Assembly (NCBI GenBank): GCA_000004985.1
Contig: GG739080.1
Length of the DNA stretch: 8,206 bases
Reading direction: 5' to 3' (one strand)
DNA from: Naegleria gruberi
Lineage: Eukaryota
Under the pieces are notes generated by a model. That model had not been told where the DNA came from. It was given only the letters and a program-made list of their open reading frames with translations, and ran no database searches. Of the stretch, positions 1 through 8,206 are shown one piece after another; the first letter of the stretch is position 1, and each line of letters opens with the position of its first letter. A program made the position numbers and the translations under genes.

Positions 1-189
1 AAAACTGAAAAATAGATTGAGGGATGGTGTATTTACTGATACGATGATTCAAGTAATTTCCTCATCCATCAATCAATGATATCTTTGTAATAATAGTACT
101 ATATAGTTTATGATCCCACCACTCAAATATAGAGTGTCTTTAACTTCCTTCAATAATTAGATCACTTTGTTATGCAGTAGTGCTTTCCA

Positions 190-1104
190 ATGCCGATTGT
201 TAAAATATCAGACAATTTCTCTAAATCATTCAAATTTAAAAAAATGGGTCAACGAAACAGTCAAGATTTTGAAAATCATCATACGAATAATTCGGAGGAA
301 ATATTCACAATTCACCATAATAATATGGTGAAAGCAAAACAGAAGAAAAAATTTGTGAAACTCCAACGACAAGAAATATTTTCAGATGATATTTGTTTTG
401 AAATAATTTCAATGATTGATGATTCGTGGTTTATTTTAAATAATTGCGCTTTAATTTCAAAACAATTCTTTAATGTGATCAAGGAACGTTCAAAACTTGT
501 TATTCAATTTAAAAACAAATTTACAAAGAAAAGAATTAAATTATTCAAGAAAAGTCAATTTAGGAATAGTATTGTTAATGTTGAATTTTCTGGATATTTG
601 CTTGGCTCGAGAGAAAGAGTCAAATTCATTAGTGAAATGAAACAATTGACATCACTTGATATTTCTCACAATCTAATTGGTTATGAAGGAGCCAAATATA
701 TAAGTGAAATGAAACAACTAACATCACTTAATATATATTACAATCAAATTAGTGATAAAGGAGCCAAATATATAAGTGAAATGAAACAATTAATATTACT
801 TAATATTGGTAGCAATCGAATTGGTGATGAAGGAGCCAAATACATCAGTGAAATGAAACAATTAACATCACTTAATGTTTCTAACAATGAAATTCGTGAT
901 GAAGGAGCTAAATTCATCAGTGAAATGAAACAATTGACATCACTTAATGTTTATAAGAATCGAATTAGTGTAGAGGGAGCCAAATATATAAGTGAAATGA
1001 AACAATTAATATTACTTAATATTGGTAGCAATCGAATTAGTGATGAAGGAGCCAAATACATCAGTGAAATGAAACAATTAACATCGCTTCACACAACAAA
1101 TTAG
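190..1104 (+). CDS. F-box-like plus leucine-rich repeat (LRR, 24-aa unit) protein. The 3' end is truncated or altered by transposon insertion at about 1090, and the last codons HTTN-stop are read from the transposon terminus.
   Basis: Long ORF. The N-terminal segment IFSDDICFEIISMIDDSWFILNNCALISKQFFNVI fits the F-box pattern of hydrophobic residues. It is followed by 7 near-identical units of the form LTSLNIxxNxIxDEGAKYISEMKQ. LRR homology stops abruptly at 1090, where the transposon TIR begins. A possible alternative start is MGQRNSQ at 244. Confidence 0.7.
   Translation: MPIVKISDNFSKSFKFKKMGQRNSQDFENHHTNNSEEIFTIHHNNMVKAKQKKKFVKLQRQEIFSDDICFEIISMIDDSWFILNNCALISKQFFNVIKERSKLVIQFKNKFTKKRIKLFKKSQFRNSIVNVEFSGYLLGSRERVKFISEMKQLTSLDISHNLIGYEGAKYISEMKQLTSLNIYYNQISDKGAKYISEMKQLILLNIGSNRIGDEGAKYISEMKQLTSLNVSNNEIRDEGAKFISEMKQLTSLNVYKNRISVEGAKYISEMKQLILLNIGSNRISDEGAKYISEMKQLTSLHTTN
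631..1089 (+). repeat. Tandem array of 72-bp repeats, about 6.4 units, encoding the LRR units. Copies are near-identical at the nucleotide level.
   Basis: The motif agtgaaatgaaacaa recurs at 631, 703, 775, 847, 919, 991 and 1063, an exact 72-nt period. Units differ by only a few substitutions. Confidence 0.9.
1088..1090. repeat. Putative 3-bp target site duplication (TTC), left copy.
   Basis: TTC lies immediately outside the left TIR (1091). An identical TTC lies immediately outside the right TIR (7594-7596). TIR similarity ends exactly at these points. Confidence 0.4.
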
Positions 1105-1107
1105 CGG
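1091..1107 (+). repeat. Left terminal inverted repeat (ACACAACAAATTAGCGG).
   Basis: Matches the reverse complement of 7577-7593 at 16 of 17 positions. The terminus begins with a (A)CACAAC motif, loosely similar to CACTA-type ends. Confidence 0.75.
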
Positions 1108-1334
1108 TACGAATTGTGTTTGCGACCCCAGTATCGCATACTTGGGTCCCAATTTGGTATTTTAAAAAATACGCTTGCCACCAAGAGTAAGAACCACAAG
1201 TTATTCGCAGCCAACAAGCCGTTCCAAACACCATCACATCATCACAGAAATAATAATTATTTTCATCAACAAACAATCATTTATTAACTACAAATATTAA
1301 TAATTTTATATATTCTAGTATTATTAATAATCAA

Positions 1335-2354
1335 ATGATATCATTCCCTCCCAGACAGGTTGATCTTTTTGATAGTAATGTAATTGATGTTGATAAAACC
1401 ATATTTAATGAACAATTAATTAGAAGAATTAAAAACATCATCAAAATGGATATCGGAATAGATTGGAGAGGAACACATTTTAGACACAAAAATCACCTAG
1501 TTAAAGAGGAAGTATGTGATAGAACAAATTGGATTGTGTTATGTCCTAATGGACAGGTAGACATTGCTTTTTTTCCAAATGCTATTCCTGAAGAATTATG
1601 CTTGGAAATGGAGACTGTAGTTGCGAATAGTGATGTTGATATTTTAAGTTGTAAAAAGGCAATTATAGATGGATCATGGACAAGATATGGAAATGGAATT
1701 TATCCAGTTAAAACAATTACTACTAACCAAAGTATTCTATTACATGAATTGAATGATAAGTGTGGACCATTTGTTTTGGATAAGTTAAAACATATTAATA
1801 AGAATATGTTTAATAAGTTGGATAATATTAATGAGGATATTAAAAATTATAAAATTTTTGCTAAATACCCAACTTTAGCATTAAATGTATCTCATAATGA
1901 AAATTACAATATAAGTAAGAAACCATATCGCAAACACACTGATGGTAATGATATTGGATTAGGAGTATTAACATATTTCGGAAGTGAAATAATTGAAGGT
2001 GGCAATCTTATTATTCATATTGAGAACTTGAAAGTATTCAACTTTCCAATTCAAAGAAGGGATTTGGTATTTTTAAATTCTAAATTTTATGCTCACCAAG
2101 TTACTAAAGTGACCTCTGGAATAAGGTTTGGTTTAGTATATTTTGCTGGAGAAGCTCATTTCAGAGTTAGAAATAATGATGATTTTTTACCTGCTTTACC
2201 ATTTAATGCTAATGACAAAGAACTACGAGAAGAAAGATCCAAAAAAGGTAGAAAAAGTATGAATGAATACAAAAAAAGATTTTTAAAAAAGTACTTACGA
2301 GAAAAGAAAAAAATTAACAAAAAGAGAGTTAAATGTAAAAATAAATTGAAATAA
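1335..2354 (+). CDS. 2-oxoglutarate/Fe(II)-dependent dioxygenase, TET/JBP-like (putative nucleic-acid base oxygenase), with a lysine-rich C-terminal tail. Cargo gene of the transposon.
   Basis: 339-aa ORF. H201-T-D203 (RKHTDGND), then H254 (FYAHQV) 53 residues later, then R264 (GIRFGLVYF) 10 residues after that. This is the canonical HxD...H...R spacing of the double-stranded beta-helix 2OGFeDO fold. The last about 45 residues are highly basic (KKGRKSMNEYKKRFLKKYLREKKKINKKRVKCKNKLK), which suggests nucleic-acid binding or an NLS. The family assignment to TET/JBP rests on the motif pattern plus the transposon context. Confidence 0.6.
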   Translation: MISFPPRQVDLFDSNVIDVDKTIFNEQLIRRIKNIIKMDIGIDWRGTHFRHKNHLVKEEVCDRTNWIVLCPNGQVDIAFFPNAIPEELCLEMETVVANSDVDILSCKKAIIDGSWTRYGNGIYPVKTITTNQSILLHELNDKCGPFVLDKLKHINKNMFNKLDNINEDIKNYKIFAKYPTLALNVSHNENYNISKKPYRKHTDGNDIGLGVLTYFGSEIIEGGNLIIHIENLKVFNFPIQRRDLVFLNSKFYAHQVTKVTSGIRFGLVYFAGEAHFRVRNNDDFLPALPFNANDKELREERSKKGRKSMNEYKKRFLKKYLREKKKINKKRVKCKNKLK

Positions 2355-3468
2355 ATGTATAATAATTACAACATTGTTGTTGTTTCATACAGTGGTCAGC
2401 ACTGTTATTGGTAACAACACCATCTCCACCAAAGATGATGTTGTTGATGTTTCATACTTACAGATTGATTTCTCTTGTCAAACATTTGATATTATTCGCT
2501 TTCAAGAATCATAATTTCCTTAAAAAATAATATTCAATAATTGATTCGAGTCATTTGAATTCTCACACACTTTCTCCCTCTTCACCAAACTTGATTTCAA
2601 CAACAGTAACATCAGTGACATAATCATAGTTCCATAAACTGGAATACCATTTGTGCAATAGCAGCACGATTGTTAATTGCGTCTAAAAGAATGGTTGTAC
2701 AAATGTCAAATGTTAAATGGCTTAATTAACTAAAATACTTACCCTCTCTTTGGATGATTGAACTGGGTCGTCTCTAATCAGTGGTTTCTTGTTTTGGATA
2801 AGCATCGATAAGAGTTGGAGTATTATCATCAACTTGAGGATTATACAATAATTTCAAATTTAAATTACCTTTCACTTGTTGACCTTCGAATGGCTAGAGA
2901 AATATAAAAACCAAAAATGTCGTTTTACCTGATTCACTTGATGCTGTTGAAGTGCTGTTATTATCTTGTGGAACGATAGTTGTTGGTGTAATTGTGACTT
3001 GCTCTGTTTTAACAACAAGAGTTGTGACAGAAGTTGCTGGGGTCTTTGATAATATTATCTTTAGGATCAGTGGTTGAGTTCCAAAAACAAATACTGTTGT
3101 TGGTGTTGAGTGTAATGTCACTGAATGATGCTTCATGAAGCCATTTTAGGTGGTTCGGATGTTGTTGATATTTTGGCCACAACTTGATGGTGTTTCATGC
3201 TGTTGAGTAGAAGATTTTGATGTTGTAGCAGGTGTATATTTGATCAACAAAAGGAATCAATAATGGAGGGTTCGAAAATATTCTGATTGGCTGTACAATC
3301 AGAGTGTAAACGACTCAACAAAGGCTAAAACAACCACCAAGAACTTTAGAAGTATCTAACACCCATGTGATGGTGAGATACTCCACCTAGTTTTCTTGGC
3401 AAAAATTTTTAACCGCATTTTTTTTCTTTCAAATTTTTATTTCTTTTTACAACAGTTATGTAATACAT

Positions 3469-6400
3469 TCAATCATCAAAGTAGAAGTCTGCACACCCAA
3501 GTAAATCCTGCCAATCATATTGTTCGTCAACATAAGCATTTTGATTATATTGTTTAAAGAAGGAGGTGTCTAATAAAACATCATCTTCATCAGATTGTTC
3601 GTTCCGATTTATAATCGTATCGGAATAAGGAGGATGTGAATTAATGCTGTTTTGATAGGCTACCATTAGATTCAAAGTTTCAGTCATTAATAATTGGTTC
3701 TCAGGATAGTTTCTTTCAATGGAATTATTTGAATCAAATGAATTATTTTGGGTCATGAATGTGGGAGATGGAGCACTGGTAGTAAATGTAAAAGCAAGTT
3801 GTCGAGCCTCTTCATTCGTTAATGATTGATAACTTGATGGACTGTGGGAACCTATATTACAAACGGCAATAGGTGATTCGTATGAACCAGAATCAAATTG
3901 TAAAGGTGGTCTACTAATTTCAATGTTTCTTTCCCAGAAAGATTTAATGACACTACCAACCCTTAGTTCTAATCTTTTGAAGACCACATCTTCAGCAGTG
4001 AATGAAAGATATAAAATTCTAAATTTCTTAAACATAATTTGAGCTATTTGGTACAAATCATTCCAAGATGTTTCATTCGTTTTTTGAATTAGATTACTAT
4101 ATGTAAAATCAAGAAGCGTATCATTTCTAACATGGTCAATCAATGTGGAACTATCTTCAATCACATATTCATGAGGTTTGGATGTCTTTTTGGTCCCTAT
4201 ATTCATCTTTCCTCTACTCACACATCTTTCCATCAACCACCGATCATACTTATGACTGTGTTCAACAGCTTGATTGGAGAAGGGAACCAAGCTTCCAATT
4301 GTTGTCAATAATTCGAATAAATGGTTAACAACAATGTGAATGTAATCACCAACGGTTCCAGCTGATCTTCTTATTTCAGCAATTAAACCTCCCCATTCAC
4401 TAATTAAATTCTTCAGTTGGAAGAATTCATCACTTGATTTTGAATCAAGTTGTTCATTTGTGTAATATATCCATCTTCTAATTGTTCTCCATCCTTCCCA
4501 AATTTTCCAAATCTTTGGATGATCCTTTTTCACAAAGTCCAAAATTGAATCAATATGCCCAAATATTTTAGAACAATGACTCCCTGTGAACATAAATGAA
4601 TATTCTGAAATATTGAGTGCCTGCTCTTCTCTTTCCTTAACTGAGAAGGAAAATGAACCAAATCCATGAATCTTTTTAAGATTTCCCAATATTTGTGATT
4701 CGGATTTTGTGGATATTAGTGTCATCTTCATAATATATTCAGTGATTCTCTCATCCAAGTGAAGGATGCAAAAATAAATATTCTTAATTCCAAACTTATG
4801 ACCAATATCTCGATGTGAACAAACATCGCCATGTTCTAATGACATCACTGAATTTTCCCTTTCACAATCACAAAAAGCACAAAATTGACAATCATCTCTT
4901 AATATTGAAACGTAAGACAGTGATTTTAAGTCACTGACCCAATAGAATTCACAAGGAATTGTTACAGAATTTTTGATACCACTTTCGTTCAACTTTGGGA
5001 AACCAAGACTTGCATCATTTTTCTCATATTCAATACATAATCCTTGATTTGCAATTTCTTGCAATTCCTTCTCAAAGTCTTTCATATGATCCATAACCTC
5101 CGATTCCTCGCCAACAAACATGCAAATAGGAATTACAGATTTAGGATCCTGAGTTGCAAATGTTAACAAATTCAAAACTTGTAAAGTAACAACCACAGTT
5201 CTCAAGTTTCCAAATTCTCTACCGTCCATTGAAATCTTCCATTTCAAGTCTTCAGGTAAACAAACACCTTCCTTAATTGATTCAGTATGATGTACAACAT
5301 CATTCACAGGGAGGTTATGTTCTTTTCGAACACTAACTTGATGAAGGTGAGCTTTCGATATTGCCGTCATTAATGGAAGTAGGTTTGCTTTGAAACCATT
5401 TTTAACCTGATTTACATTAAAGTATTCCTGTACAATCTTGTTATACTTTTTGGTCTCTTCAGTTAAAGAAGCCTTCATATTGCCCTCTGATAACAAAACA
5501 ATTTCTTTGAAAGAGTAATCTGACAACCCCACCTCGTCTTTTGTTTTCAATTGCTTTTCTAAAGATGGGGTTTTTTTAGACAGATTCATTCGTTGTAACT
5601 CATTATAAGTCTTCTCATCAGCCACTGGATGTCTCTTACATGCCAAAAGAGCATTTAGTATACTCATTGCATGTGTCACATTTTTCCTAAAATAGGAAAG
5701 AAATATATGTGACAATTCAATGTTACATAAATTGGCTATTCCAGCAAATATTTCCATAAAATCCTCACATTTAGTTTTGGATTGTTCGAAACTATTATCT
5801 AAATCCGATCTCTTAACGCTATTATGAATTACTAAAGGTGTACGTTCACTATCATCTGAAACTAAGTTAATTTTTGCTAAATTAACTTTAGTATATTTCT
5901 TTTCATCAATTTTTCTAAAGCCCCCCAATTTTTCATTGATTACCTTAATAACTTGTTGTCTTCTTTCTTTTTTCCTTATTGTTTGATCATTTGGTTTGAA
6001 TTGTTTCGTTTTTTTTCGTTTCTTTTTTACCTCCTTTTCTTGAAGAATATTTCTTTCTGGTATCTTCAAATTCAGTGCCTTCTTCAAGTTTTCCTTATCA
6101 ATAACACTCACAGAGGTACTCTTTGATGTCGTTGTTCTTTTTCTCTTTTGCTTATTAGATGAATCATTATTTTGAGATTCGGTTGGTTGAATATTTTGGT
6201 CATTTAAATCAAGAGAATGTTGATCAGTTGTTTGGGATTCAGATGGTGGAATTTGGGTTGTTTGTTCAGATTGTTCATTTGTTTGAGACATAACTGGTCC
6301 ACAAGAAGAAATATGTTGAATATTATTTGAACTCATGTTTATTTCTACAAGTCTAAACAAAAGTTTCAAAATATTATCCTTGCGTTCAGGTTGTCTAAAC

Positions 6401-6612
6401 AACATCTCTACAGCCCATTGGAAATCAACATACAAACATTTCCGAGAGCATTCAATAAATCTTAAAGATCTTTCCAATTTATAGTTTGGGAATAACTTTG
6501 TGAAATTTCCTTTACAAATTTCGTTGAATTTAAAGAATTCCACATTATCTCTACAGATACAAGAAATTTCCTTCCCAATAATCTCTGCCAAGATCGATTT
6601 ATGGGAACTCAT
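3469..6612 (-). CDS. DDE-type (RNase H-fold) transposase-like protein with a Cys/His-rich insert, CACTA/Plavaka/KDZ-like. It has N-terminal CxC-containing and low-complexity regions, NLS-like basic tracts and an acidic C-terminus.
   Basis: 1047-aa uninterrupted ORF inside the TIR-bounded element. Candidate catalytic residues are D in WKISMDGREF, D in YWVSDLKSL and E in ILHLDERITEY. A metal-chelating cluster CQFCAFCDC...H..C.H...H lies between the second D and the E. Basic tracts KQKRKRTTTSK and KKKRKKTKQFK are present, with a Gln/Ser-rich region upstream and an acidic tail (SDEDDVLLD...FYFDD). Confidence 0.6.
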   Translation of the reverse strand: MSSHKSILAEIIGKEISCICRDNVEFFKFNEICKGNFTKLFPNYKLERSLRFIECSRKCLYVDFQWAVEMLFRQPERKDNILKLLFRLVEINMSSNNIQHISSCGPVMSQTNEQSEQTTQIPPSESQTTDQHSLDLNDQNIQPTESQNNDSSNKQKRKRTTTSKSTSVSVIDKENLKKALNLKIPERNILQEKEVKKKRKKTKQFKPNDQTIRKKERRQQVIKVINEKLGGFRKIDEKKYTKVNLAKINLVSDDSERTPLVIHNSVKRSDLDNSFEQSKTKCEDFMEIFAGIANLCNIELSHIFLSYFRKNVTHAMSILNALLACKRHPVADEKTYNELQRMNLSKKTPSLEKQLKTKDEVGLSDYSFKEIVLLSEGNMKASLTEETKKYNKIVQEYFNVNQVKNGFKANLLPLMTAISKAHLHQVSVRKEHNLPVNDVVHHTESIKEGVCLPEDLKWKISMDGREFGNLRTVVVTLQVLNLLTFATQDPKSVIPICMFVGEESEVMDHMKDFEKELQEIANQGLCIEYEKNDASLGFPKLNESGIKNSVTIPCEFYWVSDLKSLSYVSILRDDCQFCAFCDCERENSVMSLEHGDVCSHRDIGHKFGIKNIYFCILHLDERITEYIMKMTLISTKSESQILGNLKKIHGFGSFSFSVKEREEQALNISEYSFMFTGSHCSKIFGHIDSILDFVKKDHPKIWKIWEGWRTIRRWIYYTNEQLDSKSSDEFFQLKNLISEWGGLIAEIRRSAGTVGDYIHIVVNHLFELLTTIGSLVPFSNQAVEHSHKYDRWLMERCVSRGKMNIGTKKTSKPHEYVIEDSSTLIDHVRNDTLLDFTYSNLIQKTNETSWNDLYQIAQIMFKKFRILYLSFTAEDVVFKRLELRVGSVIKSFWERNIEISRPPLQFDSGSYESPIAVCNIGSHSPSSYQSLTNEEARQLAFTFTTSAPSPTFMTQNNSFDSNNSIERNYPENQLLMTETLNLMVAYQNSINSHPPYSDTIINRNEQSDEDDVLLDTSFFKQYNQNAYVDEQYDWQDLLGCADFYFDD

Positions 6613-6745
6613 GTATTGAGTTTTTTTTTTAAATTTTGAAACGTAACGGTAATTAATTTAATATAAAATAATCAGTGAGTTATTGACATGAAATATTATT
6701 AAAGAGATTATATAAAATTTAAAAAGAAATAATTTATTGATATTA

Positions 6746-7384
6746 TTAAATCAATTCCCAACAATTATTTAGATAATTAAAATGTTCTTTGACAATCTCG
6801 TACTTTGCAAAAACTAGGTTGGTAACTGGATTACAAAAGAATTCCAAATAAACAAATCTAACTCTGTAAACATCACATCTAGGTTCATACTGATACATAT
6901 TTCGGGTGTTATTGTATACTCTTTGGTTAGTGTACACATTCCAAGTAACTCCATGATATGCTTTCTTATTACCCAAACTAGGAAGATTATCGAATCCTAT
7001 GAAACTAAAAGAAGGACAATTCACAGTTATTATTTGGCCATTGAAATGCATAAATTGTTTTCTAGGATCGTTCACAACATGATTTTCTACTCTACTGAAG
7101 TAGGAAACAAAGTATTCAACTGTCAACCCACCAATGAATATCTTATCTTGGTATCTCTTGTGAATGGAAGGATTAAGACAAAAACCAAGTAGAATAGAAG
7201 CATTCTCACAAAACATTTCCAAACAACAAGCTTGTTTCATACGATACACTGGAGTCTTCATTACTGGCTCCTCTAATGGAACAAACTCTGCTGTAAACTT
7301 GGTGTTCTTGTTCTTTGATGCTTCATAAATAAACCACTTGGCTTCTGTTTTGGCATTAATTACTTTACGGTCTGTATTTTGCAA
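6746..7384 (-). CDS. Hypothetical protein (212 aa), third gene inside the transposon, upstream of and co-oriented with the transposase.
   Basis: Clean ORF of 639 nt between the right subterminal region and the transposase gene. Several Cys/His residues are present but no motif I can assign. An overlapping antisense ORF (6923-7192) is shorter and considered spurious. Confidence 0.4.
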   Translation of the reverse strand: MQNTDRKVINAKTEAKWFIYEASKNKNTKFTAEFVPLEEPVMKTPVYRMKQACCLEMFCENASILLGFCLNPSIHKRYQDKIFIGGLTVEYFVSYFSRVENHVVNDPRKQFMHFNGQIITVNCPSFSFIGFDNLPSLGNKKAYHGVTWNVYTNQRVYNNTRNMYQYEPRCDVYRVRFVYLEFFCNPVTNLVFAKYEIVKEHFNYLNNCWELI

Positions 7385-7576
7385 GTTAGAGGATAAATAA
7401 ATAATAGTAACTTACTAGGTTTGTTATTATTGTTGTTTGTTGAACGTTTAGTCATTGTGTATTTGTTTTTGATTGTTGTGTATTATCCTACCAAGTCTAC
7501 CTGCGTGGGATGAGTTAGCTTCATAGTGTATTTTCATTTTTTTTTGCGTCTAAAACACAAAACGTGCCACTAGCCT

Positions 7577-7593
7577 CCGTTAATTTGTTGTGT
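7577..7593 (-). repeat. Right terminal inverted repeat (reverse complement ACACAACAAATTAACGG).
   Basis: 16/17 match to the left TIR. It is immediately followed by TTC and then by resumption of LRR-unit homology (gtttctcacaatcgaattagtgatgaagg). Confidence 0.75.
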
Positions 7594-7596
7594 TTC
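7594..7596. repeat. Putative 3-bp target site duplication (TTC), right copy.
   Basis: Identical to 1088-1090, directly abutting the right TIR. Confidence 0.4.
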
Positions 7597-7597
7597 T

Positions 7598-8091
7598 CAC
7601 AATCGAATTAGTGATGAAGGGGCCAAATATATAAATGAAATGAAACAACTAACATCACTTAATATTGGTTACAATGAAATTACTGTTGAAGGAGCTAAAT
7701 TCATCAGTGAAATGAAACAATTGACATCACTTTGTATTTATAACAATGAAATTAGTGATAAAGGAGCCAAATATTTAAGTGAAATGAAACAATTAACATC
7801 ACTTAATGTTTCTAACAATGAAACTAGTGATGAAGGAGCCAAACACATCAGTGAAATGAAACAATTAACATCGCTTTATATTTATGACAATCAAATTGGT
7901 GATAAAGGAGCTAAATATATAAGTGAAATGAAACAACTAACATCACTTAATATTGGTTACAATGAAATTAGTGATGAAGGGGCCAAATACATAAGTGAAA
8001 TGAAACAACTGACATTACTTTATATTTATAACAATGAAATTAGTGATAAAGGAGCCAAATATTTAAGTGAAATGAAACAATTAACATCACT
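7598..8091 (+). repeat. Second tandem array of the 72-bp LRR-coding repeat, about 6.9 units.
   Basis: The repeat-unit landmark agtgaaatgaaacaa (aatgaaatgaaacaa in the first unit) recurs at 7634, 7706, 7778, 7850, 7922, 7994 and 8066, a 72-nt period. It is near-identical to the units at 631-1089. Confidence 0.9.
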
Positions 8092-8206
8092 AAGAAAATA
8101 AGCTGATTGTACAGTAACACATCAGCAAACTTTTAACCATATCACGATGAGCGCCTCAAAGAATCATCGGGCCACATCAGTATGGTTCAGTATGGCTTGG
8201 TGTTTA

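Follow-up and report, generated by a model that had tools for sequence, protein, structure and literature searches.

A probable RAG1-fold transposon carrying a TET/JBP dioxygenase within a leucine-rich repeat gene of Naegleria gruberi

What separates the two parts of a leucine-rich repeat (LRR) gene in an 8,206-nt stretch of Naegleria gruberi NEG-M DNA (contig GG739080.1, a complete scaffold, hereafter the window), and what does the intervening DNA encode? The gene is broken by ~6.5 kb bounded by inverted copies of CACAACAAATTA(G/A)CGG, and a first-pass annotation of the window had proposed an intact DNA transposon of this size, bounded by terminal inverted repeats (TIRs) and inserted in the LRR gene. 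Copies elsewhere, the open reading frames (ORFs), and the breakpoints of the LRR homology bear this proposal out, and from sequence comparison and a modelled fold we consider it very probable that positions 1092-7592 are a recently active, autonomous cut-and-paste transposon of N. gruberi with a RAG1-fold transposase and a TET/JBP-family dioxygenase as cargo. The cargo, which was absent from the earlier annotation, is the most interesting feature of the element; a third gene, ORF-A, lies on the other side of the transposase.

The ends of the element were located by comparison with two further copies assembled from the read set ERR1078381, the Logan contig L001 (6,395 nt) and the contig L003 (ENA ERZ929261 k127_40821, 11,369 nt); other copies sharing the termini, which the first-pass annotation had proposed to seek, thus exist. 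Window positions 1348-7593 are 99.47% identical to L001 and positions 1088-7592 are 99.39% identical to L003, and the homology of both contigs to the window ends at CACAAC (1092) and GTTGTG (7592), with C before CACAAC and A after GTTGTG in L003. The 17-bp TIRs previously placed at 1091 and 7593 are present as an inverted 16/17 match (1091-1107 reads ACACAACAAATTAGCGG, and the reverse complement of 7577-7593 reads ACACAACAAATTAACGG), but because the homology of the copies stops at CAC...GTG, the outermost A/T pair of the 17-mer belongs to the flank and the TIR is 16 nt long (15/16), ending one base further in. The earlier hedge that the true ends might differ by 1-2 nt was therefore well placed, the shift being 1 nt on each side, and the CAC-initiated terminus it described stands, as CACAAC...GTTGTG in three copies. 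Inverted pairs of 15/16 are to be expected in an AT-rich window of 8.2 kb (three were observed, and mononucleotide shuffles gave 4.2 on average), and the TIR pair is meaningful because it lies on both LRR breakpoints and its ends are common to other copies, which is decisive. Homologous termini occur in Willaertia magna (CACTACAATTTAGC), N. lovaniensis (CACAACAATTTAA), and a further contig, L010 (CACAACAAATTAACG). The first-pass annotation had allowed that the termini might belong to the host LRR family, and they do not, as the same termini adjoin non-LRR DNA in L003 and in other genera. A degenerate pattern of both ends gave a single match in JGI metagenome contigs (L004, GOS AACY023738088.1), which is a bacterial IF-2 gene and was rejected as chance. 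The coordinates of the features are collected in Table 1.

Table 1. Features of the window and flanking bases of the four elements whose insertions could be evaluated.
Feature	Coordinates	Strand	Details
Whole transposon, 6,501 bp	1092..7592	.	ends where three copies cease to be alike
Left TIR CACAACAAATTAGCGG	1092..1107	+	sequence, copy comparison
Right TIR, reverse complement CACAACAAATTAACGG	7577..7592	-	sequence, copy comparison
Subterminal inverted block, left copy GGTACGAATTGTGTTT	1106..1121	+	from element position +15; local alignment of ends
Subterminal inverted block, right copy, reverse complement GGCACGTTTTGTGTTT	7553..7568	-	+25 from end, 10 nt further in than left
TET/JBP-family 2-oxoglutarate (2OG)-Fe(II) dioxygenase, 339 aa	1335..2354	+	NCBI model NAEGRDRAFT_76676 (EFC35665.1), 302 aa
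Spacer	2355..3468	.	no long ORF; most variable part between copies
Transposase, 1,047 aa	3469..6612	-	NCBI model NAEGRDRAFT_76677 (EFC35667.1), 955 aa
Transposase core residues			D463, D561, C578xxC581, C615xxH618, H759x4H764, E784; RAG1-fold DDE core
ORF-A, 221 aa	6746..7455	-	exon 1 7455-7416, intron 7415-7372 (44 nt), exon 2 7371-6746; NAEGRDRAFT_76678 (EFC35668.1)
Host LRR gene, 5' part	190..1091	+	N-terminal region, then 72-nt (24-aa) LRR_6 units
Host LRR gene, 3' part	7593..8101	+	stop codon 8099-8101
Flanks, window			left ...CTTCA; right TTTCT...; corrected ends
Flanks, L003			left ...TTTTC; right ACATG...
Flanks, W. magna element			left ...GACTT; right AAAAA...
Flanks, N. lovaniensis element			left ...ACTGG; right AATTA...

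Has the element moved recently? The right flanks of the window element, L001, and L003 all differ, so that several near-identical copies with intact ORFs sit at different loci, and L001 and L003 differ from each other at four positions besides their right flanks. Because copies at least 99.4% identical and with intact ORFs occupy at least three insertion sites, the element is very likely to have been recently mobile, and the earlier description of a recent, possibly still mobile copy is upheld. All three element ORFs are full length in L003; between window and L003 there are 13 changes in the 4,803 coding nt, of which 7 are synonymous and 6 are not, and ~13 events (substitutions or indels) in the 1,114-nt spacer, which makes the coding DNA ~4-5 times less divergent, and ORF-A is identical in the window and L003 and likewise on L001. 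This pattern of divergence, together with the intact ORFs, gives the element the look of a young and presumably functional one. The element proteins are cluster mates, at 90% identity, of the three NCBI models. The L003 insertion adjoins orthologues of NAEGRDRAFT_51485 and NAEGRDRAFT_71270, both of which lie on a 348-kb NEG-M scaffold, and the sole NEG-M transposase of the window transposase's cluster is the one on the 8,206-nt scaffold, which suggests an insertion polymorphism between strains. Both ends of L001 (1-22 and 6374-6395) are Illumina adapter (AGATCGGAAGAGCGTCGTGTAG and its complement) and, since adapter caps both, are library artefacts rather than biological ends. The left flank of L003 (11300-11369) ends in a tRNA-like T-arm (GGTTCGATCCCTGG), a fragment cut by the contig edge; a tRNA scan with ARAGORN called none in the window, L001, or L003.

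On the host side, the 5' part of the LRR gene (ORF 190-1104; Pfam LRR_6, E 2e-30) reads into the element and meets a stop at 1102-1104 (..LHTTN*), and in the 3' part (ORF 7640-8101; LRR_6, E 4e-28) the unit phase resumes 2 nt short. Tandem Repeats Finder places the 72-nt arrays at 613-1089 and 7599-8091, and unit alignment carries the unit-level homology up to 1091 and again from 7593. The LRR protein is closest to other LRR proteins predicted in N. gruberi, with 66-73% identity. On the preferred reading the element truncated the gene when it inserted. An assembly artefact, in which a small scaffold joins LRR reads to a repeat that is not really inserted there, would be in keeping with a window that is a complete 8.2-kb scaffold, with LRR arrays and an element that are both assembly-breaking repeats, and with L010 and L001 ending at or near element ends. 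We hold it very improbable, as the LRR units on either side are of one family, run in one direction, and agree in unit phase to within 2 nt, and the junctions are clean on both sides and coincide with ends defined independently in another data set.

How, then, did the element enter the LRR unit? Cutting out 1092-7592 leaves 47+23 = 70 of the 72 nt of an LRR unit, and cutting out 1091-7593 with one TTC leaves a unit of 65 nt, so the earlier observation that the LRR frame is not regained on excision holds under either set of ends. The two bases absent from the target unit are positions 47-48 (TA or TG), the same as the terminal TG of the element. TTC is found at 1088-1090 and 7594-7596, and the first-pass annotation took it for a 3-bp target-site duplication; this repeat is seen in the window alone and is missing from each of the other insertions that could be evaluated (in L003, W. 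magna, and N. lovaniensis), and with the boundaries shifted by up to +/-4 nt no direct repeat of 2-9 nt recurred in as many as two of the four elements. With the offset free to vary, we estimate the prior for a 3-nt match in DNA of such composition at ~5-15%, and the TTC of the window is probably coincidental.

Two other accounts of the integration bear on this result. The earlier model, a CACTA/En-Spm-type element at 1091-7593 with 17-nt TIRs (ACAC...GTGT) and a genuine 3-bp TTC duplication, is unlikely: the bases next to the L003 ends put the outer A/T pair outside the element, no 3-bp repeat exists at any offset in L003, W. magna, or N. lovaniensis, and the model leaves the 65-nt LRR unit. 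It draws on the TTC that directly borders the 16/17 inverted 17-mer in the window, on the T that also follows GTTGTG in L001, and on the fit of a 3-bp duplication and CAC termini with EnSpm, including the fungal TET-carrying EnSpm families (PMC12730594). A better candidate, though still short of an even chance, is a family whose integration either makes no target-site duplication or removes a few bases of the target, whether by blunt or near-blunt target cleavage or by end-joining of the excised element at microhomology. No duplication was found at four insertions in three genera, and the window target unit lacks exactly the 2 nt (TG/TA, positions 47-48) that match the element's terminal TG; against this, the sample is small, L003 is possibly chimeric, W. 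magna and N. lovaniensis contribute one copy each, both of which may be old, recombination between copies can uncouple flanks and so erase matching duplications, and the RAG1-fold enzymes studied (RAG, Transib, and ProtoRAG) make 3-5 bp staggered insertions. Eukaryotic DNA transposons free of duplication do exist (Spy; PMC12730594).

The right flank of L001 is LRR-like as well (p 0.006) and starts at LRR unit position 47 (TGTTTCT...), as at the window insertion, and that two independent insertions share one phase of the repeat may point to a preferred target. Immediately beyond the right end of the window element, the LRR sequence (7597-7610, CACAATCGAATTAG) resembles the left TIR (1092-1104, CACAACAAATTAG). 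The idea that the TIR was derived from LRR sequence or targets it was rejected, since this resemblance (p 0.0135) was one of 18 flank tests and is not significant after correction; the idea is also at odds with the non-LRR flanks of L003.

To which group does the transposase belong? Among 5.8 billion proteins only four close homologues were found, in all of which D463, D561, C578xxC581, H759x4H764, and E784 are invariant. An exhaustive profile search brought the relatives to 206, and D463, D561, C578, C581, H759, H764, and E784, which take in the catalytic motifs and the zinc site, are conserved in 94-100% of the relatives covering each position (up to 63). The pair C615xxH618 is likewise conserved in the family. 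AlphaFold2 run on the full 1,047 aa with four sequences gave an unusable model (predicted local distance difference test, pLDDT, 37), and the core (residues 380-900) was modelled instead with 63 relatives (pLDDT 87, predicted template modelling score 0.88). The top 40 Foldseek matches of this model in the PDB were all RAG1 (E ~1e-10), followed by Hermes (5e-4); a profile of the four close homologues found nothing relevant among PDB sequences. Weak Pfam matches among the 63 relatives were to RAG1 (three, best E 6e-6), Transposase_23 (one), and Transposase_21 (one), and two relatives each matched Ulp1 protease and DUF1280.

The hallmark of the CACTA/Mirage/Chapaev/Transib-RAG1 (CMCT) clade is a D-D-C2C-H(3-4)H-E layout together with CA..TG termini (PMC12730594). 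The window element combines this motif layout with a RAG1-like three-dimensional core and 5'-CA..TG-3' termini, which are CACAAC...GTTGTG in the three copies and likewise CA..TG in W. magna, N. lovaniensis, and L010, and placement of the predicted transposase in the CMCT clade is supported by its motifs and modelled fold. The 2-5 bp target-site duplication, which to our knowledge every described CMCT lineage makes, has its one counterpart in the TTC of the window, and there only when a flanking nucleotide is taken into the element. The first-pass assignment to the CACTA/En-Spm superfamily thus survives as an affinity with this clade in motifs and fold, but not as sequence membership in the TnpD transposase family: Transposase_21 (PF02992, TnpD) has no match in the window protein at E<1 and matches one of the 63 relatives at E 0.008, below the gathering score. 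The termini are CACAA in N. gruberi and CACTA in W. magna, and a 3-bp repeat is present at one of four insertions. Of the marks of Transib, neither a 5-bp duplication nor recognisable RAG1/Transib sequence similarity was found.

The same annotation had linked the element to KDZ (Kyakuja/Dileera/Zisupton) and Plavaka, groups with TET/JBP genes in basidiomycetes, and this link is not supported. No Pfam match to KDZ, CxC, or Plavaka was found for the window protein or any of the 63 relatives (we take the KDZ transposase domain and the CxC clusters to be PF18758 and PF18802-3). Membership in either group would account for a TET/JBP gene beside a large transposase, which is the same general idea, and Plavaka is now placed in the CMCT clade (PMC12730594); with a RAG1-like fold here, KDZ duplications of 7-8 bp, and Plavaka termini of TGT..ACA or CATCA..TGATG against CAC..GTG in the window (PMC12730594), we regard it as highly unlikely. 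Two distant relatives of the transposase on Logan contigs (P0050 and P0051) have a C-terminal Ulp1 (Peptidase_C48) domain, known from plant CACTA/Mutator, and NEG-M holds two distant members of the superfamily (NAEGRDRAFT_76258 and NAEGRDRAFT_70118; P0057 and P0203), at E 2e-23 to the profile.

The cargo was identified by phmmer against the PDB, in which query residues 62-273 match the Naegleria Tet-like dioxygenase (5cg8/4lt5, E 3.4e-12), and by alignment to NgTet1, which pairs the HxD motif (..KHTDGND..), the distal His (..YAHQV..), and the Arg (..SGIRFGLVYF..). Pfam Tet_JBP was not reached, and 2OG-FeII_Oxy_3 matched at E 0.034 only; the protein has the marks of the TET/JBP family, namely HxD...H iron ligands, a 2OG-binding Arg, and similarity to characterised enzymes, and it is a TET/JBP dioxygenase predicted to oxidise 5-methylcytosine or thymine. 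Its homologues include proteins of 40% identity in W. magna and 36% on a Logan contig. In the spacer downstream (2355-3468), tblastn found no remnant of a histone H3-like gene or of a W. magna-type TET. ORF-A appears in the letters as an ORF at 6746-7384, and the splice read from the sequence gives the 221 aa of the NCBI model; it lies beside the transposase in every relative examined, with homologues aligned from the contigs L002, L005, L006, and L007, and searches of Pfam and the PDB, also with a profile, gave no match for it.

Related elements in W. magna and N. lovaniensis keep the gene order of the window element and have almost the same termini. The relatives differ in what they carry. 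The W. magna element (L002, JBEGDK010000099.1, 9177-17238, 8,062 bp), whose termini, CACTACAATTTAGC and its inverse, are also written CACTACAATTTA(G/A)C, contains ORF-A, a transposase, and a TET/JBP-like gene. The TET of this element matches NgTet1 (E 1.7e-5) and CcTet and has no BLAST similarity to the TET of the window, so TET was probably acquired more than once or has greatly diverged; a second W. magna TET, the one 40% identical to that of the window, lies close to a contig end. The N. lovaniensis element (L007, PYSW02000012.1, 8104-13014; termini CACAACAATTTA) has ORF-A, a histone H3-fold gene, and a transposase, and no TET. Its H3-fold gene (9434-9997) stands in the place of the TET between ORF-A and the transposase, and the environmental contig L006 repeats this order with an H3-like gene at 1528-1914 (PF00125, E 7.5e-33 in L007 and 7.8e-39 in L006); a transposon-borne H3 variant is unusual in itself. 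L010 (ENA ERZ929261 k127_72844, 1-5084), which like L003 comes from the ERR1078381 organism, has a very divergent 980-aa transposase (P0056, E 1e-25 to the profile) and an ORF-A-like gene of 229 aa. It starts with T followed by CACAACAAATTAACG, the terminal 15 nt of the window's right TIR; the candidate for its other end (5073-5084) is at chance level, and an LRR gene lies 350 nt further out. In L007, two tandem Zn(2)Cys(6) (PF00172) genes (13066-17386) begin 52 nt beyond the right TIR of this N. lovaniensis element; the distant relative P0088 has a Zn_clus domain fused to its transposase, and the link between the two may be coincidental.

Inside the TIRs the window element has a second, subterminal pair of inverted blocks, 13/16 identical (p 0.043 against shuffles). 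A second inverted block is also present in the N. lovaniensis element (L007 8168-8181 and 12974-12987; +65 vs +28, p<0.0005) and in that of W. magna (L002 around 9244 and 17208; +68 vs +21, p 0.068), and the asymmetric bipartite ends of the three elements recall the 12/23 arrangement of RAG signals. We put forward, tentatively and with rather more doubt than confidence, that the window element is the first described representative of a heterolobosean lineage of RAG1-fold transposons with exchangeable chromatin cargo, a near-invariant terminus, an unequal second block, and no regular duplication. The cargo exchanged would be TET/JBP in N. gruberi, another TET/JBP lineage in W. magna, and an H3 variant in N. 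lovaniensis and the environmental relative; the terminus would be CACAACAA(A/T)TTA across transposases diverged to ~25% identity; and the putative second recognition block would lie at unequal distances from the ends, recalling the 12/23 asymmetry.

Several points weigh against reading 1092-7592 as a recently active autonomous transposon. The LRR protein search did not find a near-identical uninterrupted LRR allele (an empty site), its best matches being the paralogues of 66-73% identity, and an LRR unit 2 nt short after excision implies that there was no clean staggered-cut integration or that damage came later. Only one copy is annotated in NEG-M, and L003, as a short-read metagenome contig, could join the flanks of two different copies. 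The window transposase has no Pfam transposase match, no consistent target-site duplication is seen over four evaluable insertions, and the ends of the W. magna and N. lovaniensis elements are placed by their TIRs alone.

If 1092-7592 is such a transposon, the transposase would bind and pair its CAC-initiated ends, and the subterminal block with them, as we infer from RAG1, ProtoRAG, and Transib. A nick at CAC would then free the element, for a RAG1 fold probably via a hairpin on the flank, and its 3'-OH ends would be joined into a new target site. On the precedent of the fungal elements (PMC12730594), the TET may oxidise methylated bases on and around the element and so blunt methylation-based silencing by the host. 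A histone H3 variant as the alternative cargo would follow the same theme by acting on the element's own chromatin, and ORF-A may serve as a conserved partner protein.

The original description of fungal TET/JBP-carrying transposons is said to be that of Iyer et al. 2014. Such transposons are established in fungi in several superfamilies, among them the CMCT lineages EnSpm, ESTA, and Plavaka (Kojima 2025, PMC12730594), so the concept is already known. In the searchable literature, which did not take in Iyer et al. 2014, Hashimoto et al. 2014, or Repbase, no paper was found in which a Naegleria Tet gene, or a TET from any other non-fungal source, is tied to a transposon. New here are the host lineage, the unclassified RAG1-fold transposase family, the accessory gene, the interchangeable chromatin cargo, and possibly an atypical integration. 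If the tentative lineage reading is true, at least one Naegleria Tet paralogue is transposon cargo and transposons have captured TET genes outside the fungi as well. That an excavate amoeba has this arrangement too, in a different and unclassified branch of the RAG1/CACTA clade, speaks for a strategy that has arisen repeatedly, and the sister elements with a histone H3 variant suggest that transposons may repeatedly acquire chromatin proteins or enzymes with an effect on the epigenetic state of the transposon itself. The finding bears on the origin of the Naegleria Tet family, a member of which, NgTet1, is a structural and biotechnological model, and it supplies the comparative set for RAG1 evolution with a deeply branching protist relative whose RAG1-like core is modelled with confidence. 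The apparent lack of target-site duplications, if confirmed, would be unusual for the CMCT clade. In annotation, labels can now be given to NAEGRDRAFT_76676, 76677, and 76678, so far 'predicted proteins' of N. gruberi.

Set beside known systems, the element resembles KDZ transposons as known carriers of TET/JBP and differs from them in its transposase family, in their 7-8 bp duplications, and in the lack of TIRs in Kyakuja (PMC12730594), and it has no Pfam KDZ or CxC match. Its distance from RAG1, the RAG1L of ProtoRAG, and Transib lies in a sequence identity of ~11-15%, in having no 5-bp duplication, and in the absence of an identified nonamer-like element; the element has no RAG2-like kelch partner, and the 221-aa ORF-A is unrelated to such a partner by sequence. 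Like plant CACTA/En-Spm it has CAC(TA) termini, those of the W. magna relative beginning with CACTACAA; other features in common are the large TnpD-like transposase, the presence of a second protein, and, in some relatives, Ulp1 domains as in CACTA/Mutator, whereas Transposase_21 is unmatched by the window protein, the 3-bp duplication is unconfirmed, and there is one subterminal block rather than arrays of repeats. NgTet1 (PDB 4lt5/5cg8) comes from the same species and enzyme family, with HxD, distal His, and Arg aligned to those of the cargo, but the cargo is a distant paralogue that word-based search misses, it lies inside a mobile element, and its substrate is a predicted one. From the fungal TET/JBP transposons the present element differs in its host, a heterolobosean amoeba, in its TET, which is of the NgTet1 type, and in showing no 2-3 bp duplication; its transposase has no Pfam EnSpm or Plavaka match, and its sister elements carry a histone H3-like gene in place of a TET. 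The fungal elements share with it the plan of a TIR-bounded cut-and-paste element in which a TET/JBP passenger adjoins a DDE transposase marked by C2C and H(3-4)H motifs, between CA..TG or CAC..GTG termini, often with a third gene of unknown role.

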